NCBI GenBank assembly: GCA_026395685.1
Contig: JAPLYG010000009.1
Coordinates: 17,519-81,518, forward strand
Length of the DNA: 64,000 nucleotides
Direction: 5' to 3'
DNA from: Candidatus Parcubacteria bacterium
GTDB lineage: Bacteria > Patescibacteriota > Patescibacteriia > CAIXNZ01
Of the stretch, positions 5,584-49,828 are shown one piece after another; position 1 is the first letter of the stretch, and every line of letters begins with the position of its first letter. A program made the translations under genes and the position numbers. The notes below the pieces were generated by a model. It was not told the origin of the DNA and did not search any database. It saw only the letters and a program-made list of their open reading frames with translations.

Positions 5584-6270
5584 GTGTCTAATTATTACGG
5601 CCTTAAAAAATTTACAAATATTTGTTATAATCAATCCATGATAACAAACCTGATCGCTTTATTGGCGCAAATAGTAATTTATATCATCAGCCACATTGGT
5701 TATGGCGGTATTTTTTTATTGATGCTGGTGGAATCCTGCGGTATTCCCATGCCGTCAGAAGTGATTATGCCCTTTTCCGGATTTTTAGTGGCCAACGGGC
5801 AACTAAACTTCTGGCTAGTGGCGCTAATCGGCGCCTTTGGCAATTTGGCAGGTTCCTGGCTGGCATACTGGATAGGCGCAAGAGGTGGCAGGCCTTTGAT
5901 TGAAAAATACGGTAAGTATATTTTGATTTCCCATCATGACCTGGATCTGGCTGATAAATGGTTTAGTAAATACGGCGACTGGACAGTATTTTTTGGCCGG
6001 TTGCTACCCGTAATTAGAACCTATATTTCCTTCCCCGCCGGCATAGCCAAAATGGATTTTAAAAAGTTCACACTTTATACTTTATTAGGCGCCCTGCCCT
6101 GGACTATTTTATTCACCTGGCTGGGTGTAAAAATGGGCAATAACTGGGAACAAATCCAAAAAACTTTGCATAATTTTGATTTGCTGATGTTGATTCTGGT
6201 AATTGCAGCTATTGTCTGGTATGTTTGGCGGCATTTAAAACATAGAAGCAACCCCAAGCGAACCAGCTAA
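5584..6270 (+). CDS. DedA / SNARE-associated (TVP38) family membrane protein
   Basis: Conserved DedA core (GIPMPSEVIMPFSGFLV ... GRLLPVIRTYISFPAGIAKM). Confidence 0.8.
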   Translation: MSNYYGLKKFTNICYNQSMITNLIALLAQIVIYIISHIGYGGIFLLMLVESCGIPMPSEVIMPFSGFLVANGQLNFWLVALIGAFGNLAGSWLAYWIGARGGRPLIEKYGKYILISHHDLDLADKWFSKYGDWTVFFGRLLPVIRTYISFPAGIAKMDFKKFTLYTLLGALPWTILFTWLGVKMGNNWEQIQKTLHNFDLLMLILVIAAIVWYVWRHLKHRSNPKRTS

Positions 6271-20157: not shown

Positions 20158-21264
20158 TTAAATTCCTTCTTTTCCCAATTCTTCCAAAAGTTCCTTTTGC
20201 CTTCTATTTAATTTCTCCGGGGTTTTGACAAGCACTTCAACCAGCTGGTCTCCCCGGCCATAATGCTGAAAACGAGTCACGCCCTTACCCCGCAAAATAA
20301 AAACCTTGCCGGATTGGGTAGCGGCTGGAATTTTCAAATCAACTTCGCCGTCAACTGTCTGTACGCTTATTTTTCCTCCCAAAGCAGCCAAAGAATATGA
20401 AATTTCAGTTTGAGTTAAAATATCATCGCCTTCACGTTTGAAATATGGATCAGACTTAACATGGATATGAATATATAAATCACCTGCTTTGCCGCTTTTA
20501 ATGCCGGCTTCACCTTGGCCAGCCATTTTCAAACTCATGCCGTTATTCAAACCGGCTGAAATTTTCACGTCCATCTGAACCTTTTGTTTTATCCTTCCCT
20601 GGCCATCGCACTGAGTGCAATTTTTCTCATTAATTTTACCTTCACCCCGGCATTCGTCACAGGCACCAATGGTCTGAATATTGCCCAAAATTGTCCGCTG
20701 CATTTTATGAACCTGGCCTTTACCGTCACAAGCTTTGCAGGTAACAATTTTACTGCCCGGTTCTGCGCCATTGCCATGGCAATGCTCGCAAGAAATCAAT
20801 TTAATCAATTCAATTTTTTTGTCCGCGCCAAAAACCGCTTCTTTAAATTCCAATTCCAAACCAATTTCAATATCCCTGCCCCTGGTTTCCCGACGTCGGC
20901 GACTTCCACCGCCAAAACCTCCGCCGAACATACCGCCTAAAATATCTCCCAAATCACCCATATCGAAATCTACGTTACTGTAAGAACCACCGCCTTGTCG
21001 CGCCTGGCGCATAATATCTTCCCAGCCCATACCTCCGCCAAATCCACCCTGCTGAGTAAAATCAGAGCCAAACTGGTCATACTGCTGGCGTTTCTCATCA
21101 TTTGCCAAAACCTGATAAGCCTCATTGATTTCCTTAAACTTTTTTTCATCACCGCCTGGTTTATCAGGATGAAAAAGATGGGCCTTCTCGCGGAAGGCCT
21201 TTTTGATATCTTCTTTGGAGGCGGTTTTTCCGACGCCAAGTATGTTATAGTAATCCTTTGACAT
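20158..21264 (-). CDS. dnaJ: chaperone DnaJ
   Basis: J-domain with HPD (DYYNILGV...HPDK), G/F-rich linker, four CxxCxGxG zinc repeats. Confidence 0.9.
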   Translation of the reverse strand: MSKDYYNILGVGKTASKEDIKKAFREKAHLFHPDKPGGDEKKFKEINEAYQVLANDEKRQQYDQFGSDFTQQGGFGGGMGWEDIMRQARQGGGSYSNVDFDMGDLGDILGGMFGGGFGGGSRRRRETRGRDIEIGLELEFKEAVFGADKKIELIKLISCEHCHGNGAEPGSKIVTCKACDGKGQVHKMQRTILGNIQTIGACDECRGEGKINEKNCTQCDGQGRIKQKVQMDVKISAGLNNGMSLKMAGQGEAGIKSGKAGDLYIHIHVKSDPYFKREGDDILTQTEISYSLAALGGKISVQTVDGEVDLKIPAATQSGKVFILRGKGVTRFQHYGRGDQLVEVLVKTPEKLNRRQKELLEELGKEGI

Positions 21265-21327: not shown

Positions 21328-22611
21328 TTAATCACGTTCCTTCATTCCTTTCTCCTTAAAAATCTTTTTTACTTCCTCAAGAAATTCCGGATTCTTATCA
21401 AAATCTAATTTTGTACCATGGAAAATATCTCTTAAATACTTGCCGATTGTTCTCTCAATTGATAAAAAAACTTCCGGTCCGCCGGCAACCATACCCTGTC
21501 TTTGCCAAATTTTCAAAGTGGAAGCCACATCCTCAATTTCCTCGCCCGGATTGATTAAAATCAGATCATCAACCGGCGTTTTTTTCCCAAGTGCCTTGTC
21601 ATGCTGGAAGTCTTCCTGCTGTTTTCTAACCTGATTCTGCTTTTTTATAAATTCAGATGTTCCGGAAGTAATAAGAGTTACCTGATAGCCCTTTTTCAAT
21701 TCGCTTTCAGTCGGATTCTTCTCAATACCGATACCACGTCTTTTATTGACCAATTCCAGAATTACATCAATCTTATTCACGATATCATCATCGGCCGTGG
21801 CATTACTAATATCAAAATTCCATTTCACGCCTAAGTCAAATGCTACTTTGGTCAGCAAACAGTTAATCATTCTTTCAAAAACAAAACCTGAAGGCATCTC
21901 AGTGTAGCTTTTACCAGCCGCCCTTAAAACCTTAATCTTTTTTAGAGTTTCATATGTTTTTAGGTATGCGTTACCGATGCCTTTGCCCTGATTATTCTTC
22001 GGAATCTTGTTAATCTCAATTCTTTCAATCAGTAATTGCTCCTCTTCAATTTCATCCAAATGCGCATCAAATATTTTGGCATTATAAATATTTATAAATT
22101 CAGCCAATTCCGGCTGATTTTCCAATGCCTTAATGTCATAATACATGCCCCAACCAATATCACTAATCAAATCGCCAGCTGTGCGTTTTGCTTGATAACC
22201 GCCTTTGGCTTCAAAAATGAACATCTGAGATTCAGAATCGTATTCAATCGGGCGAGTATTTGCCACTTCCGGCTGTTCGCCCTTCCTTTTGGCGATTATT
22301 AAACGCTGTCGTTCCACTTCCAATTCAAAGATTTTTCTTTGAGCTGGCGTCTTATCAGGATCATTGACATCAATATTGCCATAAGCTTTAATCTGCCGTT
22401 TCAGCTGTGATTTTATCTTTTTATATTCATCCGTGCCAAGATCTTCCTCACTGCTATTTTCAAATTCAATTTTTTGGCGCGCCAAATCAGCCGCCGCTAC
22501 ATAATCAAAGCCAGTTTCAGATTGTTCCTGTTTCTCAAATGATAGCATAGAAATATAATAATTTGTTAAACACTTATTAATTTTCACAGATATCACAGAT
22601 TTTCGAAACAT
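21328..22611 (-). CDS. hypothetical protein inside dnaK-dnaJ operon (no recognisable domain)
   Basis: 427-aa ORF co-oriented between dnaK and dnaJ; start choice uncertain. Confidence 0.55.
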   Translation of the reverse strand: MFRKSVISVKINKCLTNYYISMLSFEKQEQSETGFDYVAAADLARQKIEFENSSEEDLGTDEYKKIKSQLKRQIKAYGNIDVNDPDKTPAQRKIFELEVERQRLIIAKRKGEQPEVANTRPIEYDSESQMFIFEAKGGYQAKRTAGDLISDIGWGMYYDIKALENQPELAEFINIYNAKIFDAHLDEIEEEQLLIERIEINKIPKNNQGKGIGNAYLKTYETLKKIKVLRAAGKSYTEMPSGFVFERMINCLLTKVAFDLGVKWNFDISNATADDDIVNKIDVILELVNKRRGIGIEKNPTESELKKGYQVTLITSGTSEFIKKQNQVRKQQEDFQHDKALGKKTPVDDLILINPGEEIEDVASTLKIWQRQGMVAGGPEVFLSIERTIGKYLRDIFHGTKLDFDKNPEFLEEVKKIFKEKGMKERD

Positions 22612-22765: not shown

Positions 22766-23050
22766 TTAAACATTCGGGAATGGGATGCCTTTGGGAGCAT
22801 CTGCCTCTTTAATCTCGCCGAACGACTTCTCATACATCTCCAGATTATCCTGCAGGGCCTTAATAATCCTTTTCATATGTCCGGGACTTGTTATCACCCT
22901 GGCGGTCATTATCCCCTGTGGAGGCACCACATTGGCAAAATCCAAAATAAACTCCTCTTTGGTATGCATTACCTGCATCATGTTGGCATACCTCCCTTCC
23001 AGAATCTCATCCGTAATCTTGATATTGATTTGATTGGGTTGATTTTCCAT
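22766..23050 (-). CDS. DUF3467-family small protein
   Basis: YANMMQVMHTKEEFILDFANVVP...RVITSPGHMKRIIKALQDNLEMYEKSFGEI matches the DUF3467 pattern as recalled. Confidence 0.55.
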   Translation of the reverse strand: MENQPNQINIKITDEILEGRYANMMQVMHTKEEFILDFANVVPPQGIMTARVITSPGHMKRIIKALQDNLEMYEKSFGEIKEADAPKGIPFPNV

Positions 23051-23086: not shown

Positions 23087-24988
23087 TTATTTTTTCTCTT
23101 CAAATTCACCTTCTTCCGGCTTTTTATCTTCAGCCTTTTGATCTTGATTGCCCTGATCCGCCGAAGCTTTTGCGGAGGCTTCCTGTTGAGCCTTATACAT
23201 CTCCGCTCCGATTTTTTGAGCGGATTGCATAACCGCGTCATTGGCTTTTTTAATAGCTTCGGCATCTAAACCGTCTTTAACCTTTTTCAATTCCTCAATC
23301 TTATTTTGAACTTCCTTTTTCATATCAGGATTAACCTTGTCGCCCAATTCAACTAAAGTCTTCTCAGTTGAATAAATCAAGGTATCGGCTGAATTTTTAA
23401 CTTCAATCAGTTCCTTTTTCTTTTTATCTTCTTCAGCATGGAGTTCCGCGTCTTTTTGCATTTTATCAATTTCTTCTTTAGATAATCCTGAAGAAGCAGT
23501 AATGGTTATTTTTTGTTCTTTACTTGTCGCCTTATCAACTGCCTTAACATTTAAAATACCATTAGCATCCAGATCAAAAGTAACTTCAACCTGAGGCATG
23601 CCGCGCGGAGCCGGTGGAATCCCAGATAAAATAAAACGACCTAAAGACTTATTGTCAGCCGCCATTTCACGTTCACCCTGCAAGACATTTATTTCCACTG
23701 AAGTCTGGGAATCAGCTGCCGTTGAAAAAACTTGCGATTTGGAAGTCGGGATGGTCGTGTTGCGGGCAATTAATTTGGTGCAAACACCACCTAGGGTTTC
23801 AATGCCTAATGATAATGGAGTGACGTCTAATAGCAAAACGTCCTTAACTTCACCCTGCATTACGCCTGCCTGAACAGCAGCGCCAATGGCTACGACTTCA
23901 TCAGGATTAACTCCCAAATGAGGCTTTTTGCCAAAAAATTCTTCCACTTTTTTCTGTACCAAAGGCATGCGGGTCATACCGCCGACCATGACGACTTCTT
24001 CTATTTCAGAGGTTTTAAATCCGGCATCAGCTAAAGCTTTTTTGCATGGTTCCAAAGTGGCTTCAACTAATTCACCGACCAGCTCTTCCAGTTTAGCGCG
24101 GGTCATTTTCATAACCAGATGTACAGGACTGCCGTCAGCACCCTGGGCAATAAACGGCTGATTAATTTCAGCTTCCACTGAAGAGGACAATTCAATTTTC
24201 GCTTTTTCACCGGCATCTTTGATTCTTTGCAAAGCCATGGGATCCTTAGACAGATCCAAACCGTTTTGTTTTTTAAATTCAGAAATTATCCAATCAATTA
24301 TTTTCTTGTCAAAATCATCACCGCCTAAATGAGTATCGCCGTTTGTTGATTTGACTTCTACAGTATCGGCGGTAACGTCCAAAATAGAAATATCAAAAGT
24401 GCCGCCGCCCAAATCATAAACCGCGATTTGCTGATCTTTTTTCTTGTCAAAACCATAAGCCAATGCAGCAGCAGTCGGTTCATTAATAATTCTTTTAACA
24501 TCCAGTCCGGCGATCTTACCGGCATCTTTAGTTGCCTGTCTTTGAGAATCGTCAAAATAAGCTGGCACAGTAATTATCGCCTCGGTAATTTTTTCACCGG
24601 TTTTCTCTTCAGCATCAGCTTTTAATTTCTGCAAAATCATGGCTGAAATTTCCTGAGGAGTATATTCCTTATCGTTCATTATAACCTTAACTCCGTCGCC
24701 TGACTGAATTAATTTATAAGGCAAGGTCTCTTTGTCTCTTTGCACTTCCTTGTCAGTCCATCTGCGACCGATCAAGCGTTTGATGGAAAAAATGGTGTTG
24801 GCTGGATTAGTTACAGCCTGCCTTTTAGCCAGCTGCCCAACCACTCTTTCTCCTGCTTTAGAAATAGCTACGACTGAAGGAGTTGTGCGCATGCCTTCTT
24901 TATTTTCCAGCACTTTTGGCTCACCGCCTTCAATAATCGCCATACATGAATTAGTTGTACCCAAATCAATACCTAAGATCTTTGACAT
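23087..24988 (-). CDS. dnaK: chaperone DnaK (Hsp70)
   Basis: [28 protein letters not shown] motifs; 633 aa. Confidence 0.95.
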
Positions 24989-25023
24989 ATGTTTGTAAAA
25001 TTTAATTATTAGTAAGCTTTTCA

Positions 25024-25059
25024 GCTTAGAGCTCTGGGCTTAGGGCTAGTGCTCTAAGC
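25024..25059. promoter_or_regulatory. CIRCE-like degenerate inverted repeat upstream of dnaK
   Basis: GCTTAGAGC-N18-GCTCTAAGC; right half contains AGTGCTCTAA resembling CIRCE GAGTGCTAA. Confidence 0.3.
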
Positions 25060-25097
25060 TCAAGGCTCATAGCTCCAAACAAATATTTTTTAATACC

Positions 25098-25126
25098 CTT
25101 GACAAAATCAAATATTATGGTTATAT
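25098..25126 (+). promoter_or_regulatory. sigma70-type promoter TTGACA-17-TATATT
   Basis: cTTGACAaaatcaaatattatggtTATATTaa. Confidence 0.5.
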
Positions 25127-25244
25127 TAATTAAGTAATTACGCAAATCTTTTTTAAGGAGGAAAAAAAGATGACGTAACGAGATTATTTTCTGCTGCGGA
25201 AAAGTTCCAAGTACAAACTGTCGAAAAGTTGAGGAGGGGTTTCC

Positions 25245-25631
25245 ATGTCTGATTCCGTTTGCGTTTGCGTAGAAATGCCAAAGAGTATGGGCCGAGTCAA
25301 AGCCAGAGAAGTGCGCTGGGAAATTCAGGCCCCGGTAATTAAAGCGGTCCAGTCCATCTGCGACAGCTGGGTAGATTCCCAAAAAATCGCCGCTTCCATA
25401 GCCAATGCTATCCCTAAAAAAACTCTCCGAAGAAAAATTGCGGCTGAGGAAGCAAAACCCAAAGCTTACAAAAAACCCGTCGTGGTGGAGGAAAAGATTT
25501 TTCTGAGCCTGCCGGAAAGAAAACGCGAACAGTATTATGTCAAACTCAGGGTTGCCAGAGAAGGTGTGGTTGAAGTACATCTTCATGAAAAACAAGAACT
25601 TATCGACCGAATAAAAGCCGGCCACGCCTGA
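25245..25631 (+). CDS. hypothetical basic (K/R-rich) 128-aa protein, GC-rich, opposite strand to surrounding operon
   Basis: Strong SD GAGGAGG 7 nt upstream of ATG, own promoter, own terminator; the antisense ORF 25026-25625 looks non-coding. Confidence 0.6.
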   Translation: MSDSVCVCVEMPKSMGRVKAREVRWEIQAPVIKAVQSICDSWVDSQKIAASIANAIPKKTLRRKIAAEEAKPKAYKKPVVVEEKIFLSLPERKREQYYVKLRVAREGVVEVHLHEKQELIDRIKAGHA

Positions 25632-25639
25632 TCCGACCC

Positions 25640-25676
25640 TTAGCCTGTTCCCCTTGCGGAACAGGCTTTTTTTATT
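25640..25676 (+). terminator. rho-independent terminator
   Basis: agcctgttcc-ccttgc-ggaacaggct followed by TTTTTTT. Confidence 0.8.
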
Positions 25677-25809
25677 TAATTAAAAATTCAAAGTGCAAAT
25701 TTCAAAGTTACAAAGCAAAGTTCAAAATGTTGGAACATAGTTATTAATAAACTTCCTAAATTTTTAATTAATAACTGCAATTTTGCACTTTAAACTTTGA
25801 ACTTTAAAC
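25677..25809. repeat. intergenic repeat family C (caaagtgcaaa / tttgcacttt, aaactttgaacttt words), near-palindromic
   Basis: Same word family at 28674-28851 and 39117-39259. Confidence 0.5.
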
Positions 25810-26289
25810 TTATTCACTCACCACCACTTTCGCCGGCGCTAAAACCTTTCCCTTTATTAAATAGCCGGAACTAATTTCAGCAATTATAATATCTGATTCA
25901 ATATCTTCTTTTTTTTCCTTATTAACCGCTTCATGGAATTCCGGATTAAACTTTTCACCGACTGTTTTAATTTCTTCAATGCCGTATTGCTTCAAAAAGT
26001 CCCCGAACTGCTTTTTAATCGCTTTGACCCCATCTACCCAGGCATTGCTTTGTTCAGCCGGCACAATCGCAACCGCCTTTTTCAAATTATCGTAAACTGG
26101 CAAAATTTCCATAATCAAAGCAGAATTGGCCAAATCAAAAAATGACTTTTGTTTTTCATCCATTTCTTTCTTAAAATTGACATAATCTGCTTTAGCCCGC
26201 TTCCAGCCGTTTAAATACTCTTCACACTGGGCTTTGAGCTTTTCGATTTCTTCCTTGTTGTTATCTAATTTTGTTGTTTGTTCTGGCAT
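25810..26289 (-). CDS. grpE: nucleotide exchange factor GrpE
   Basis: Coiled-coil N-terminus and conserved core (AKADYVNFKKEMDEK...MEILPVYDNL); hrcA-grpE-dnaK synteny. Confidence 0.85.
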   Translation of the reverse strand: MPEQTTKLDNNKEEIEKLKAQCEEYLNGWKRAKADYVNFKKEMDEKQKSFFDLANSALIMEILPVYDNLKKAVAIVPAEQSNAWVDGVKAIKKQFGDFLKQYGIEEIKTVGEKFNPEFHEAVNKEKKEDIESDIIIAEISSGYLIKGKVLAPAKVVVSE

Positions 26290-26382: not shown

Positions 26383-27078
26383 CTATATTTTAGTTAACGA
26401 ATTACTAATAAACTCCACCAGCGCCAAATTTTTATTATAATCCATTCTCTTTGGCCCTAAAATTATAAATAAACCGGTTGACTTATCATTTAAAAAATAC
26501 TTGCCAAAAACCGAGGAACAATCATCGCCAAAAGGATTTTTGGAGCCTATTAAAACTTGAACCTTATTAATCTTATCAAAAACCTGTTTAATCTTGTCAT
26601 CCAGATGGTCAATTACTTCAGAAACATTTTTAATTAAATTCTGGTCGCTAAATTCCGGTTTTTTAAAAAGGTTGGCTAAGCCGGTGTAATAAATATGATC
26701 TTTATCAAAAGCAACGATAACTGTAGCGTCAGCCAGTTCCACTGCGGTCTTGGCCAGATTTTTCATCAGTTCATCATCGTCAATTTTTTGTTTCAATACC
26801 AGTTCAAATGACTTGCGCCAGGTAGCTTTGATTTCCCGCTTTTCTACAAAATTATCGACATAGAATTGATAACCTTTTTCAGTCGGTACTCTGCCGGCAG
26901 AAGTATGGGGCTGGTAAATCAATCCTTCTTTTTCCAAATCCGCCATTTCATTCCTGAGTGTGGCAGATGATAAATCCAAGCCACCCTTATCCACCAAAAA
27001 GCTTGAGCCGACTGGTTCGGCTGTCTTAATATGCTCGTTAATGATCAAATTGAGTAATTTTTTCTGCCTTTCATTCAT
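26383..27078 (-). CDS. hrcA: heat-inducible transcription repressor HrcA
   Basis: N-terminal winged-helix (MNERQKKLLNLIINEHIKTAEPVGSS...LSSATLRNEMADLEKEGLI); CIRCE upstream. Confidence 0.85.
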   Translation of the reverse strand: MNERQKKLLNLIINEHIKTAEPVGSSFLVDKGGLDLSSATLRNEMADLEKEGLIYQPHTSAGRVPTEKGYQFYVDNFVEKREIKATWRKSFELVLKQKIDDDELMKNLAKTAVELADATVIVAFDKDHIYYTGLANLFKKPEFSDQNLIKNVSEVIDHLDDKIKQVFDKINKVQVLIGSKNPFGDDCSSVFGKYFLNDKSTGLFIILGPKRMDYNKNLALVEFISNSLTKI

Positions 27079-27240
27079 AAAATAATTTAATCACCAATCA
27101 TCAATTACCAATCATCAAACAATACCTAATTATTAAATCCTACTAACTAAAACGTTTTAAAATTTAGAATTTGGGCATTTGAATTTGTTTGGATCTTGGA
27201 GTTTGATTATTGATTATTATAGCTACATTTATTACCTTTA
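27079..27240. repeat. intergenic imperfect-palindrome repeat family A, copy 2
   Basis: Shares caatcatcaaacaatacc, aatttagaa, gaatttgttt, gattattgat blocks with copy 1. Confidence 0.55.
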
Positions 27241-27278: not shown

Positions 27279-27305
27279 TTAGCAGTCGTCAAGCCCGAGT
27301 GCTAA
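27279..27305. promoter_or_regulatory. CIRCE operator (HrcA binding site)
   Basis: TTAGCAGTC-N9-GAGTGCTAA vs consensus TTAGCACTC-N9-GAGTGCTAA (1 mismatch), upstream of hrcA. Confidence 0.75.
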
Positions 27306-27416
27306 TAGGTTACTAATCTACTACCCCCCTAATTTGTAGATTAGTAGCTTATTAGTAAATTAGCAGCAATAAAAAAAGGCAAGCTTTCGCCTGACTTCAG
27401 ACTTCGAACTTCGGAC

Positions 27417-28673
27417 TTATTCTTTTCTCAGTGCCACCATTGGATCCAAAGCTGCCGCGCTTCTCGCAGGGTAAATGCCAGAAACCAGGCCCACAAAAAT
27501 TGAAATGCCTGAAGCCAATAATAAGTAAGTCAAAGAAAAATAAAACTGCCAGTCAAAATTTAAAAAATTAGTAGCTACATAGCTGATGAGCCAGGTTATA
27601 AATACGCCAAGAATAATTCCCAAAATTCCGCCCATGAAAGTTATAATCACGGCTTCAACTAAAAACTGATTTAATATATCAGCTGACTTCGCGCCCAGGG
27701 CTTTGCGCAAGCCGATTTCAAAAGTACGCTCGGCCACAGAGACATACATCACATTCATAATCCCCACGCCACCCACGACTAAAGAAATACAAGCCAGGGC
27801 AAAGAGTAAAATTTTTATAGCGCCGGTAATCACAGCCAGCATTTCCAAGGCCTGATCAGAAGTCGTGGCTGCAAAATCATCCATGTTCGGATCAGTAATA
27901 TCATGAAGATCCCGCATTAAATAATCAATATCATCAACCGTCTCAGGACCTAATGATTTATCCTTCATGGTTGCCATGATAAACGTGACATAATCAATGC
28001 CCAAAATTAATTTCTGCATAGATCGCAAAGGCATGATGATCATATCATCCATGGAAAAAACCCCGGCGCTTCCCCTTTCCGCCATGACTCCGACTACTTT
28101 AAAATTATATTTTTTTATTTTCACAAATTGTCCGATTGCTTGCTGATCGCCAAACAAAGAATCCTTGATCTTACTGCCTAAGACAATGACCCTGGCCAAC
28201 CCCTTGTCTTCCGCATCAGTAAAAAACCTGCCTTCGCTGATTGTGCCTGTATCTACCCGCTGAAAACCCTCGGTGACGCCAAAAATCATAGAAATTTTAT
28301 TTTTATCTTCAAAGGAAACTACTTCCTGCCCTGTTGAGGCAGAGTAGACATCTTTTATATTGGAAAGTTTTTGAATTTCCACAGCATCTTTTTCTTTCAT
28401 GGTAGTAATGGTAATGCCCTGAGCCATGCCCCCGGCATTTTCCACTGAAGTATGCCCGGTTGCCGGAATTTTTACTTCCACCTGCACCCAATCAGTGCCA
28501 AACTGAGTAACCTGGCTGGTAATAAAAAACTCAATCGCTTTGCCGGCTGACAAAACCACAATCACCGCGGAAATACCGACGGTAATGCCCAGAATCGTCA
28601 AAACAGCCCTTAGCTTGTGGCTGATAATGGCTGCCCTGGCGATTTCGATTGATTTTCTGGTCTTCGTAAACAT
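27417..28673 (-). CDS. ABC transporter permease, FtsX/MacB family
   Basis: N-terminal TM, large extracytoplasmic domain, C-terminal 3-TM FtsX core. Confidence 0.8.
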   Translation of the reverse strand: MFTKTRKSIEIARAAIISHKLRAVLTILGITVGISAVIVVLSAGKAIEFFITSQVTQFGTDWVQVEVKIPATGHTSVENAGGMAQGITITTMKEKDAVEIQKLSNIKDVYSASTGQEVVSFEDKNKISMIFGVTEGFQRVDTGTISEGRFFTDAEDKGLARVIVLGSKIKDSLFGDQQAIGQFVKIKKYNFKVVGVMAERGSAGVFSMDDMIIMPLRSMQKLILGIDYVTFIMATMKDKSLGPETVDDIDYLMRDLHDITDPNMDDFAATTSDQALEMLAVITGAIKILLFALACISLVVGGVGIMNVMYVSVAERTFEIGLRKALGAKSADILNQFLVEAVIITFMGGILGIILGVFITWLISYVATNFLNFDWQFYFSLTYLLLASGISIFVGLVSGIYPARSAAALDPMVALRKE

Positions 28674-28851
28674 ACTTTATATTAAGTTCGGTTTACATTC
28701 TTCATTCCTTAGAACTAATTTAAAGTTCAAAATGCAAAGTGCAAAGTTACAGTTTAAAAATAATAATTTTGGTATTTATATAATAAAAAATTTCCAAAAT
28801 TTTAAACTAATAATTGTAACTTTTTAATTTTGAACTTTGAACTTTCAATTC
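28674..28851. repeat. intergenic repeat family C copy
   Basis: aaagttcaaaatgcaaagtgcaaagttacag ... aactttttaattttgaactttgaactttc. Confidence 0.5.
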
Positions 28852-48454: not shown

Positions 48455-48483
48455 TTGACAATGTTGACAATTTATGATAAATT
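48455..48483 (+). promoter_or_regulatory. tandem TTGACA -35 boxes plus TGATAAAT -10-like element; AAGGAGG SD at 48504-48510
   Basis: gtgaTTGACAatgTTGACAatttaTGATAAATt ... aAAGGAGGactttccATG. Confidence 0.4.
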
Positions 48484-48518
48484 AAGTAAACAGTTTATTT
48501 GAAAAAGGAGGACTTTCC

Positions 48519-49781
48519 ATGGATAATAACGGGAGTTTTTACCAGCAAGCCCAACGGCTGCAAGATGCGGCTTATGATGTCCGCAACCCCAAGATTCGGG
48601 AAGCCAGATTGATCATTGAACAGACCATTAAAGAAGAACTGCGGACTAAACCCAGGGAAGAAATCAAACAACTGCATTCCTGGAATATCGGCAACCCGCC
48701 TTATTTTGGCATCCAGCCGCCGGAAGAAATCAATCATTTGCTGCAGCAGATCCAGATCCAGTATGGCTATTCCCCGGCTCAGGGATTGGAACAGGCTATT
48801 GAGTCCATTTTCGCCTACCATCAGTCGCAAAAATTTATCAATCTCAAAAGAGAAAATATTTTCGGCACTGATGGCGTAAGTGAAGGCATTCGCCTTGTTA
48901 CTACGGCAACGCTTAATCCCGGGGACGAAATACTCCTGCCTACGCCCAATTATCCCCTTTGGCGCCTGTTTGTGCAGCAAGCCGGAGCCATTCCGGTTCA
49001 CTACCAGTGTGATGAAAAATCCTGCTGGTATCCGGATCTTGCCGATATCATCAGGAAAATCAGCGGCCGGACAAAAGCAATCTTGCTGATCAATCCCAAT
49101 AATCCGACCGGCGCAATTTATTCCCTGGAAATTTTGCAGCAGATTATCAGTATTGCTCGCGAGCACCGGCTAATCATCTTTGCTGATGAAGTCTATAACG
49201 AAGTGCTTTACGGCCAAGCCAAGCACATTCCGATTGCCTCGATTTCTGACGAGGTGCTGATTTTCACGCTTAATGGCCTGTCTAAAAACAGGCTCATGCC
49301 CGGCATTCGTTCCGGCTGGATTGCCATTAGCGGACCGACGCATCAGGCGCGTGACTTGATTAACGGCATTAACCTGCTTGTTAATGCCAGGCTGTGCCCG
49401 AATATCTACGGCCAATTGGCCATTCCCCTGATCCTCCCCCGCGCTGACTACCTCCGGCCGCTTTTAGTGCCTGGGGGACGATTCTTTGACCAGATTGAAG
49501 CAGCCAGCCAGGCAATCAATCAGTGCGAGGAGCTGTCTTGCGTCAAAGCTGATGCAACTATGTACCTTTACGTAAAGATCAACAGCCCGAATCACATTGC
49601 CAATGACGAGAAGTTCATTCTGGACCTGCTCAATGCTGAACGAGTTCAGCTTGTGCAGGGTACCGGCTTTGACGACAAAAATCTACCGCGGCATATCCGC
49701 ATTGTCTGTCTGGCGCCGGTGGCTGAACTGACCGAGGGCATCGGACGCATTATTAGGTTTCTGCAGAACTACAAAAACTAA
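48519..49781 (+). CDS. PLP-dependent class I/II aminotransferase (AlaA/AspC-like)
   Basis: LSKNRLMPGIRSGW lysine region; visibly higher GC than neighbours; the antisense ORF 48495-49166 looks spurious. Confidence 0.85.
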   Translation: MDNNGSFYQQAQRLQDAAYDVRNPKIREARLIIEQTIKEELRTKPREEIKQLHSWNIGNPPYFGIQPPEEINHLLQQIQIQYGYSPAQGLEQAIESIFAYHQSQKFINLKRENIFGTDGVSEGIRLVTTATLNPGDEILLPTPNYPLWRLFVQQAGAIPVHYQCDEKSCWYPDLADIIRKISGRTKAILLINPNNPTGAIYSLEILQQIISIAREHRLIIFADEVYNEVLYGQAKHIPIASISDEVLIFTLNGLSKNRLMPGIRSGWIAISGPTHQARDLINGINLLVNARLCPNIYGQLAIPLILPRADYLRPLLVPGGRFFDQIEAASQAINQCEELSCVKADATMYLYVKINSPNHIANDEKFILDLLNAERVQLVQGTGFDDKNLPRHIRIVCLAPVAELTEGIGRIIRFLQNYKN

Positions 49782-49792
49782 AAGAACACAAA

Positions 49793-49828
49793 AACCCCCT
49801 GAGCCAAATGGTTCAGGGGGCTTTTTCT
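49793..49828 (+). terminator. rho-independent terminator
   Basis: cccccTGAGCCAAATGGTTCAggggg followed by CTTTTTC. Confidence 0.8.

Follow-up and report, generated by a model that had tools for sequence, protein, structure and literature searches.

We analysed a stretch of 64,000 nt from Candidatus Parcubacteria bacterium (assembly GCA_026395685.1, contig JAPLYG010000009.1, positions 17,519–81,518 of the forward strand), hereafter the window, and describe a gene on its plus strand (25245–25631) that lies inside the heat-shock locus, in the slot between dnaK and grpE. This slot gene encodes a protein of 128 residues, which is type A of a hypervariable orphan family. It is divergent from dnaK (23087–24988, minus strand) and convergent with grpE (25810–26289, minus strand), and it interrupts the hrcA-grpE-dnaK arrangement. 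The window was compared with 16 distinct related loci, drawn from Parcubacteria metagenome-assembled genomes (MAGs) and metagenome contigs, in which HrcA is at least 79% identical to that of the window. The antisense slot gene defines a narrow Parcubacteria clade and sits where the relatives of this clade carry hsp20. The explanation that we prefer as a whole, with rather less than even confidence, is that of an autonomous, hypervariable gene whose product most likely modulates the heat-shock circuit.

The slot gene is protein-coding

The minus strand holds 45 of the 50 window genes. The slot gene had been described, in an original prediction made from the sequence of the window, as the sole plus-strand gene in about 20 kb, and it is in fact alone on its strand over about 32 kb (9124 to 41623). 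As that prediction also stated, the open reading frame (ORF) is richer in GC than its surroundings (0.470, compared to a gene mean of 0.390 with a standard deviation of 0.033), which ranks it second highest among the window genes. The GC contents of its first, second and third codon positions (GC1, GC2 and GC3) are 0.58, 0.37 and 0.46, respectively, the usual coding pattern of GC1 > GC3 > GC2. Since the GC excess is driven by first codon positions, it mainly reflects amino-acid composition. Codon usage was scored by a log-odds model trained on the other window genes, with leave-one-out scoring of the native genes. The score of the slot gene (0.22 per codon) lies within the native range (0.30 ± 0.10), while 17 shadow ORFs score at most 0.135. 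The ratio of nonsynonymous to synonymous differences (pN/pS) is lowest in the slot-gene frame (+0) in all 10 pairs of close homologues (0.30–0.51), and the reading frame is unbroken in every locus. We conclude that 25245–25631 is a real protein-coding gene.

The operon-sense strand opposite the gene carries a second long frame, ORF199 (25026–25625, minus strand), which had been put forward as potentially the conserved one of the two. ORF199 is a shadow ORF and not a gene. Its codon score is −0.13, its pN/pS is 0.66–1.8 and its frame contains stop codons in 8 of 10 homologues; the stops and the pN/pS values dispose of it as an alternative. It has no Pfam match, and a comparison with an Hsp20 profile by hhalign gave a probability of 0.5%. 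The GC-rich island within an AT-rich spacer, and the long ORFs open on both strands, could be taken to indicate a structured RNA, or ORF199 as the conserved gene. We find such a non-protein reading scarcely credible, as the constraint is specific to the +0 frame, the ORF199 frame is broken in most homologues with a negative codon score, and the leader contains no conserved RNA structure (see below). Rfam gives no match, even at permissive E-values: a search of a 3-kb region at E-values up to 1 and one of the whole window at gathering thresholds returned nothing but chance matches and tRNAs. ARAGORN identified no tmRNA at the locus.

An autonomous transcription unit with genome-atypical signals

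A sigma-70-type promoter, TTGACA-17-TATATT, is located at 25099–25127 (plus strand), about 110 bp upstream of the dnaK start and divergent from it. With 11 of 12 consensus matches, it deserves the description as near-consensus. The AT-rich region shows no overall enrichment of promoter-like sites (10, compared to 8.7 expected) and, thus, the weight of the slot promoter rests on its conservation, with TTGAC(A/T)-17-TAnnnT common to 16/16 related loci. A CCAATTTCCC-like motif is found directly upstream of the −35 box in most of these loci.

Transcription is expected, from the position of the −10 box, to produce a 5′ leader of about 110 nt (25134–25244, plus strand). RNAalifold predicts 0 pairs for an alignment of nine leaders, no Rfam match was obtained, and the single-sequence fold is weaker than those of shuffled sequences (z +1.26). 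A riboswitch, RNA thermometer or attenuator was considered and rejected on these grounds; a leader without conserved or unusually stable structure does not support a riboswitch or RNA thermometer. The distance from the −10 box to the ATG is 116–135 nt in types A–D of the protein family and 41–64 nt in types E and F (the types are described below).

The leader contains a first Shine-Dalgarno (SD) sequence, AGGAGG (25156–25161, plus strand), followed by a mini-ORF of two codons, ATG-ACG-TAA (25170–25178, Met-Thr-stop). An SD with ATG-AC(G/C)-TAA or ATG-ACC-TGA is present in seven of the eight distinct leaders of types A, B and D, with synonymous variation, and the two-codon mini-ORF is not present in types C, E and F. 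As the pattern in the window alone is not above chance, only its conservation across loci counts; this conservation, with synonymous variation, suggests that the mini-ORF is translated. In the type A locus L015, a 25-codon upstream ORF (MDLMFLQKKVGLIRYRTKKKEGVHV) takes the place of the two-codon mini-ORF ahead of the slot gene (286–648 of that contig). Its stop codon overlaps the main start (ATGTCTGA), a layout typical of translational coupling. The leader alignment also contains a motif, CTGCGGAAAAGTT (25194–25206, plus strand; direct repeat D4), which appears as GCGGAAAGTGTT in relatives.

The second SD, GAGGAGGGG (25231–25239, plus strand), lies 5 nt upstream of the main ATG, and GGAGG precedes the ORF in 16/16 loci. 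The contrast drawn earlier between the strong SD of this gene and native genes mostly without one is borne out by the window, where only 2 of the 50 genes have an SD match of at least 6 nt. The match to the anti-SD is at most 5 nt in the other 48 and the genome is, in this sense, almost SD-less. A TATAAT-like box ends 4–12 nt upstream of the start codon in 9 of the 50 genes; this placement suggests that some mRNAs of the window may be leaderless.

Downstream of the ORF is an intrinsic terminator (25642–25676, plus strand) consisting of a 10-bp stem (25642–25667; 6 GC pairs), a 6-nt loop and a run of seven T, in keeping with its previous characterization as a textbook terminator. It is predicted to be unidirectional because the opposite strand has no T-run. 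A hairpin with a T-run follows the ORF in 16/16 loci, and the GC content of the ORF is above that of the rest of the contig in 16/16 loci (0.42–0.55, compared to 0.30–0.41). Judged by these signals, the region 25099–25676 constitutes a predicted autonomous transcription unit with its own promoter, leader of about 110 nt, canonical SD, 128-residue ORF and terminator.

A second self-contained, GC-rich (0.50) unit is located at 48455–49822 (plus strand) and encodes a class I/II aminotransferase of 420 residues (PF00155). This unit has tandem TTGACA boxes and a hairpin terminator at about 49797–49822. Its SD, AAGGAGG, is the only other strong SD in the window, and it shares the tttccATG tail of the slot gene. 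The aminotransferase unit could be of foreign origin; alternatively, it and the slot gene could form part of a small group of genes that depend on an SD.

The slot is occupied throughout a narrow clade

A word-indexed search of 5.8 billion proteins returned the query alone, which is annotated in a Candidatus Parcubacteria MAG as a hypothetical protein. Among the matches of an exhaustive HMMER search of 1.84 billion cluster representatives, P0002 and P0005 are true relatives, whereas P0003 and P0004 are low-complexity tandem-repeat translations and were rejected. Two profile iterations resulted in a family of 12 proteins of 113–144 residues, all of them singletons from Parcubacteria MAGs or freshwater/sediment metagenomes. 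The layout dnaK(−)/ORF(+)/grpE(−)/hrcA(−) is found in every contig with context.

Loci were also retrieved independently of the slot content, by collecting 80 metagenome loci with a GrpE profile and locating hrcA, grpE, hsp20 and dnaK in them. Seven of these loci (L019–L024 and L043) have an HrcA that is 79–90% identical to that of the window, and none of the seven contains hsp20. The gap between grpE and dnaK is 539–795 bp in six of them (the contig of L019 ends before dnaK), and all seven have an operon-antisense ORF of 95–116 residues, preceded by a TTGAC(A/T) promoter and a GGAGG SD and followed by a hairpin terminator. Only two of the seven ORFs match the hidden Markov model of the family, both weakly. 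By hhalign, type D (L019) aligns to the family with a probability of 96% (E 1e-8) and type E (L020, L024 and L043) with a probability of 66% (E 6e-5); the members of type F (L021–L023) are alike by eye. The synteny comparison suggested with the original prediction finds an operon-antisense ORF of 95–129 residues in the grpE-dnaK slot of 16/16 loci.

Among 73 distant loci (HrcA identity of at most 51%), tblastn detects an operon-sense hsp20 downstream of grpE in 39, and grpE and dnaK are almost contiguous in 17. The outgroup Patescibacteria genomes L002–L006 have hsp20 in the slot, in the order hrcA-grpE-hsp20-dnaK, and their Hsp20 proteins are 63–80% identical to each other. The slot gene had been thought to split a normally contiguous operon; its position between grpE and dnaK is as described, but in this phylum the two genes are often separated. 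No hsp20 was found in the 64-kb window by tblastn with Hsp20, or in the clade loci. The possibility that the slot gene is a degenerate or inverted hsp20 was rejected, as the family profile and a Patescibacteria Hsp20 profile align with an hhalign probability of only 1% and tblastn finds nothing. The two genes resemble each other in their chromosomal slot and in size, with 144–153 residues for hsp20 and 95–129 residues for the slot ORFs, but hsp20 is encoded on the operon-sense strand and the slot ORFs on the opposite one. Hsp20 is a well conserved (63–80%) β-sandwich, whereas the slot protein is hypervariable and predicted by AlphaFold2 (AF2) to be α/β.

The slot gene had been interpreted as a horizontally acquired, self-contained module. 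Its GC content (0.47, compared to 0.39), its canonical promoter, SD and terminator without counterpart in native genes, and the possibly foreign nature of the only other SD-bearing, GC-rich plus-strand unit, the aminotransferase, are what a recent acquisition specific to this genome would explain. However, all related loci have the gene at this site, with its orientation and regulatory frame unchanged, and this synteny refutes a recent acquisition. The GC excess recurs in 16/16 loci and is driven by GC1, with a native-like codon score. Homologues are absent from phage, plasmid and viral collections and from taxa outside the clade (1.8–5.8 billion proteins), and the locus has no flanking direct repeats, integrase or transposase. 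We, thus, consider a recent acquisition very improbable. What endures of the earlier interpretation is a self-contained unit with its own signals and a real protein; the recent or one-off insertion does not, since the gene is present in all relatives. The other suggestion made with the original prediction, that of a regulator attached to the heat-shock locus, may still be right. The reverse expectation, of relatives with the gene at the same place and of native composition, is correct for the place and incorrect for the composition, which is GC-shifted everywhere. An ancient acquisition of the slot gene at the base of the clade is possible.

Hypervariability and protein types

Between the window and the related locus L001, protein identity is 92% for HrcA, 90% for DnaK, 89% for the DUF3467 protein, 86% for GrpE, 85% for an ABC permease and 70% for a 427-residue protein, but only 27% for the slot protein. 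Nucleotide identity is 0.82–0.86 in three genes of the chaperone locus, compared to 0.30–0.49 over the entire 820-bp spacer, ORF included. The rate of nonsynonymous substitution (dN) is 0.80 for the slot gene versus 0.085 for grpE, 0.047 for hrcA and 0.074 for dnaK. The synonymous rate (dS) is about 1, and saturated, throughout the slot gene and its flanks, and the slot protein changes, in terms of dN, roughly 10–17 times faster than HrcA, GrpE and DnaK. Within types, the dN/dS of the slot gene is 0.17–0.35, compared to 0.02–0.14 for the flanks; the slot gene is under moderate purifying selection within types.

Type A comprises the window, L008 and L015; type B comprises L001, L010-12, L016-18, P0012 and P0014; and type C comprises L009 and L013/14. 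Among types A–C, identity is 55–78% within a type and 24–36% between types, and some types of the slot protein are no longer recognisable by profile search. Between types, identity of the coding segment is 0.53, compared to a shuffled baseline of 0.51, whereas the promoter (0.65), the leader (0.57) and the downstream segment containing the terminator (0.60) are above the baseline.

The slot types do not track the divergence of the flanks. L001 and L010 share type B (72% identity) despite a dnaK dS of 1.15 and GrpE C-termini that are 57% identical, while the window and L001 differ in type (27%) even though their dnaK dS is 1.02 and their GrpE C-termini are 91% identical. Identities of GrpE and of the slot protein are negatively rank-correlated (rho −0.42). 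On a larger scale, the types follow phylogeny, with types A–D found in loci where HrcA is 90–93% identical to that of the window and types E and F where it is 79–84% identical. The slot gene was probably inherited vertically, with very fast and possibly episodic divergence and probable exchange of alleles among close lineages; the recombination part is provisional because of the small sample, the saturated dS and the many short contigs. In L010 and L011, the C-terminal region of GrpE is 55–59% identical to those of all other clade members, with DnaK at 91% and a type B slot protein that is 72–74% identical to those of L001 and L012. This pattern hints at recombination or replacement affecting the 3′ end of grpE itself.

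Such divergence into discrete types at a fixed locus is expected of a conflict or “arms-race” gene, engaged in antagonism with phage, competing strains or the host cell of these presumed episymbionts. Diversifying or balancing selection would maintain its alleles, homologous recombination through the conserved dnaK and grpE flanks would exchange them, and the place between essential genes would guard the gene against loss. The bimodal slot identity at similar flank divergence (72% for L001–L010, 27% for window–L001) and the negative rank correlation are consistent with this, as are the strong, constitutive-looking expression signals and the mosaic combinations of promoter, terminator and palindrome types, as exemplified by L019 (type D), whose promoter resembles that of type A and whose terminator resembles that of type B. 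However, the dN/dS within types is a mark of purifying, not positive, selection, the larger division of types (A–D versus E and F) is phylogenetic, and the flanking palindromes may themselves be mobile. The gene has no partner and is strictly single-copy at a fixed position in all loci, rather than sporadic or mobile. Its product lacks a signal peptide and transmembrane segments, contains no domain of toxins or antitoxins, and has no PADLOC or PHROG match. We rate a role in conflict as unlikely when taken by itself.

An orphan protein family

The slot protein agrees with its first description as K/R-rich and without a domain: 26 of its 128 residues are Lys or Arg, its isoelectric point is 9.6 and it contains no Pfam domain. 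It is of the soluble type, with no signal peptide, transmembrane or hydrophobic segment, and the grand average of hydropathy is −0.02 to −0.44. The conserved columns of the family (W42, I48, A49, I52, A53, K62, L87, P90, R94, V103, E110 and H112) look like those of a folded core; of these, W42, I52, A53, L87, P90, V103 and E110 are conserved among 11 members. The AF2 model improves from a mean pLDDT of 44 for the single sequence to 75 with the 11-member alignment (pTM 0.69). It has a small α/β fold with the order β(4–8)-β(24–28)-α-α-α-β-β-β-α.

As predicted, this order of elements (two strands, helices, three strands) is PAS-like, and PAS domains are also the top Foldseek matches of the slot protein, although these are not significant (E ≥0.25, TM-score 0.25–0.36). 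The slot protein has no sequence match to any PAS model of Pfam. The homology searches that had been recommended for the protein returned nothing reproducible in Pfam, PHROGs, PADLOC, NCBIfam or PDB sequences; PADLOC gave a chance match of a single member at E 0.02, and PHROGs gave nothing consistent. An apparent resemblance of the type E N-terminus to AbrB/MazE was rejected, with hhalign probabilities of 0.5% and 1.0% against AbrB/Abh/SpoVT N-domains, and the type E N-terminus has no match to the SpoVT/AbrB/MazE model of Pfam (PF04014) at E-values up to 5. We found no description of the family in the literature. The slot proteins are a family without detectable sequence or fold relatives.

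Separation of dnaK from hrcA-grpE

[quoted passage not shown] This operator (27279–27305, 1 mismatch) is upstream of hrcA and overlaps the hrcA promoter TTGACG-17-TATACT. No CIRCE variant is found upstream of dnaK or of the slot ORF at this threshold, and membership of the slot gene in the HrcA/CIRCE regulon is not indicated by any CIRCE at its promoter. The region between the dnaK start and the slot promoter contains a palindrome (25020–25063; 16-nt arms, 12-nt spacer), which differs from CIRCE in arms and spacing. This palindrome is not conserved, and close relatives have unrelated palindromes in its place. A correspondence between palindrome and protein type was looked for and rejected, as one palindrome is shared by loci of types A and C and another by loci of types A and B; this lack of co-variation speaks against an operator that co-evolves with the protein. 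Directly after the grpE stop codon is a long AT-rich inverted repeat (25680–25811), which probably serves to terminate grpE transcription or to insulate the two convergent units from each other.

Long AT-rich or low-complexity palindromes are also a general feature of the spacers, at 25020–25063, 25680–25811, about 27100–27200, 27395–27420 and about 28690–28850 in the window, and in the spacers of L001 and L008–L024. They include AAAGTGCAAA/TTTGCACTTT and AGCTC-rich repeats, are wholly different between close relatives, and recur in other combinations. These palindromes may be mobile palindromic elements or terminators.

Since the single CIRCE is located at hrcA, the slot unit converges on grpE and the inverted repeat follows grpE, we infer that dnaK is probably transcribed apart from hrcA-grpE, outside direct CIRCE control. 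No promoter of dnaK was identified with confidence. The GC skew is negative over all 64 kb and, with the direction of replication read from the skew and from gene co-orientation, the slot gene is probably head-on to replication.

This layout could also mean that the act of expression matters more than the slot protein. As a transcriptional insulator, the unit would uncouple dnaK from the HrcA/CIRCE-controlled hrcA-grpE transcript by convergent transcription and terminators, perhaps competing with the adjacent dnaK promoter; the ORF would then be an orphan of recent origin, under weak constraint, whose main role is to keep the transcript translated and stable. In accord with this, all 16 loci keep the position, orientation, promoter, SD, terminator and an ORF of about 95–129 residues, but not its sequence, and, between types, the promoter, leader and terminator segments are all better conserved than the coding segment. 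The spacer as a whole evolves in the manner of unconstrained DNA, the slot dN/dS (0.2–0.5) is high compared to the flanks (0.02–0.14), and the sole CIRCE is upstream of hrcA. On the other hand, pN/pS is clearly lowest in the ORF frame, which is intact in every locus, core residues are conserved, and the alignment raises the confidence of the AF2 model. Pure insulation would not call for an ORF of 100–130 residues with two SDs in an otherwise SD-less genome. We give this interpretation a low probability, similar to that of a conflict gene, and each of the two is about as good as the modulator interpretation described next.

A possible modulator of the heat-shock circuit

In the mechanism that we propose, RNA polymerase would start about 110 bp upstream of dnaK and move away from it. 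Ribosomes would be recruited to the slot mRNA by SD pairing, an exception in a genome with hardly any SDs. They would load first, in types A, B and D, on the mini-ORF (Met-Thr-stop), and this element probably modulates initiation at the second SD or feeds ribosomes into it. Transcription of the slot unit would stop 134 bp short of grpE. Converging on grpE and flanked by hairpins on both sides, the unit would cut the ancestral operon in two, leaving only hrcA-grpE behind the single CIRCE/HrcA-controlled promoter and dnaK to be expressed from a 256-bp region (24989–25244) shared with the slot gene. The slot protein, with a predicted α/β fold and a mass of about 14 kDa, is tentatively suggested to be a lineage-specific modulator of the heat-shock circuit, a suggestion more doubtful than the explanation as a whole. 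It would act on HrcA, on the DnaK system or on dnaK expression. Its strict linkage to the locus and the precedent of HagF are the reasons for this suggestion. The fast change of the protein would result from the probable head-on orientation together with relaxed or diversifying selection.

HagF (CT016/CTL0271) is a Chlamydia-specific protein that binds and antagonises HrcA in a minimal-genome bacterium (PMC12154930). It demonstrates that lineage-specific orphans can tune the hrcA-grpE-dnaK circuit (PMC12154930), and it would be an analogue, not a homologue, of the slot protein. An antagonist of the HagF kind would bind HrcA and block its dimerisation; HrcA binding by the slot protein is hypothetical. 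The hagF gene has a CIRCE beside its promoter and is HrcA-repressed, and HagF is conserved across Chlamydia species, whereas the slot gene has no CIRCE and its product is hypervariable.

Accessory genes are also found inside the dnaK operons of other bacteria, such as hspR of Streptomyces, Helicobacter and Campylobacter, and dafA of Thermus. These encode small regulatory or assembly factors within the chaperone locus, to which the slot gene can be likened. However, hspR and dafA are co-transcribed in sense and belong to recognisable families (MerR for HspR), whereas the slot gene is antisense, autonomous and an orphan. HspR is also treated in PMC7464140.

Upstream mini-ORFs, or “start-stop” elements, have been described in bacteria (bioRxiv 10.1101/520783; uRBS study, PMC13285730). 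The slot leader likewise has an SD-equipped minimal ORF, conserved in types A, B and D. However, the slot mini-ORF is start-Thr-stop, with two codons, rather than a pure start-stop, and represents a candidate regulatory element. At a distance of about 65 nt upstream of the main start, it is unlikely to occlude the main SD directly. Genes that are head-on to replication (on the lagging strand) evolve faster, although the reported effects are modest (PMC5585990, PMC6220195). The slot gene is similarly a lone, apparently strongly expressed and fast-evolving gene that runs against the dominant direction and the GC skew. Since the head-on effects are modest compared to an at least tenfold dN excess and the loss of any recognisable likeness, relaxed or diversifying selection would be needed in addition.

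Several observations weigh against a modulator. The functional step is based on position (guilt by association) and on analogy. The main objection is that HrcA and DnaK are 80–97% identical where the slot protein is 25% identical or unrecognisable; near-invariant presumed partners are not the usual pattern for a tight binding partner. There is no CIRCE or conserved operator near the slot promoter, and the adjoining palindromes differ between close relatives. No DNA-binding or other domain of the slot protein was found in the domain libraries, and Foldseek searches of PDB and BFVD gave nothing significant (best E 0.25, TM-score ≤0.36). Homology of type F to the other types could not be demonstrated; its members show no similarity to type E by hhalign, in a comparison confined to that type. 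The relatives all come from MAGs or metagenomes, many as short contigs, and the rate ratios are approximate because dS is saturated for most pairs.

The elements above could also be combined, with a conserved expression frame of strong promoter, SD-led translation, terminator and head-on orientation driving a protein under diversifying selection whose alleles are shuffled among lineages by recombination through the chaperone genes. Such a hypervariable cassette would have replaced hsp20 and rewired dnaK off CIRCE, and its product would be a factor in symbiosis or conflict, or else an adaptor or anti-repressor of a new, lineage-specific type that acts on the HrcA/DnaK circuit. We regard this combination, too, as improbable, although far less so than a recent acquisition.

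Other features of the locus

The hrcA gene (26383–27078, minus strand) encodes 231 residues. In a homologous locus, the corresponding protein matches PF01628 and that of grpE matches PF01025. The HrcA proteins of other Patescibacteria loci have about 225–233 residues, compared to about 340 for canonical HrcA, and part of the usual C-terminal region may be absent from Patescibacteria HrcA proteins. The dnaK gene has no SD, and the slot unit parts it from hrcA-grpE. It is followed by the gene for the DUF3467 protein (22766–23050), the gene for the 427-residue protein (21328–22611, minus strand) and, further along the heat-shock gene run, dnaJ (20158–21264). The 427-residue protein has no Pfam domain, and its homologue in L001 (6619–7815) is the 70% identical protein mentioned above. 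L001 contains an additional ORF of 159 residues (5714–6193, plus strand) between the DUF3467 gene and this homologue; with window genes as queries, the tblastn matches of the neighbouring genes leave the interval uncovered.

Implications

Bacteria of the Candidate Phyla Radiation (CPR) have tiny genomes, are not culturable alone and encode many unannotated small proteins, and orphan small genes are common in CPR genomes. The slot gene is an unusually well defined case, being an orphan found in every sampled clade member inside a highly conserved bacterial operon. Although its expression signals are conserved and atypical of the genome, nothing in the neighbourhood changes as fast as its protein. 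Private accessory genes of chaperone operons are a known kind, as with HagF, HspR and DafA. What makes the slot gene a distinct variant is its antisense autonomous layout, its replacement of hsp20, its hypervariability and a frame of SD and mini-ORF within an SD-less genome. If none of the interpretations holds, the slot gene would be an ordinary fast-evolving hypothetical protein, and the main value of the analysis would be to correct the reading of the locus as horizontal gene transfer. If it is instead a conflict gene or an insulator, the locus would offer a natural system for how essential flanks preserve a fast-evolving locus, and for SD-dependent versus SD-independent translation within one genome. 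If the slot protein does modulate HrcA or DnaK, it would be the second case, after HagF of Chlamydia, of a private heat-shock regulator in a reduced genome, and would explain the uncoupling of dnaK from CIRCE.

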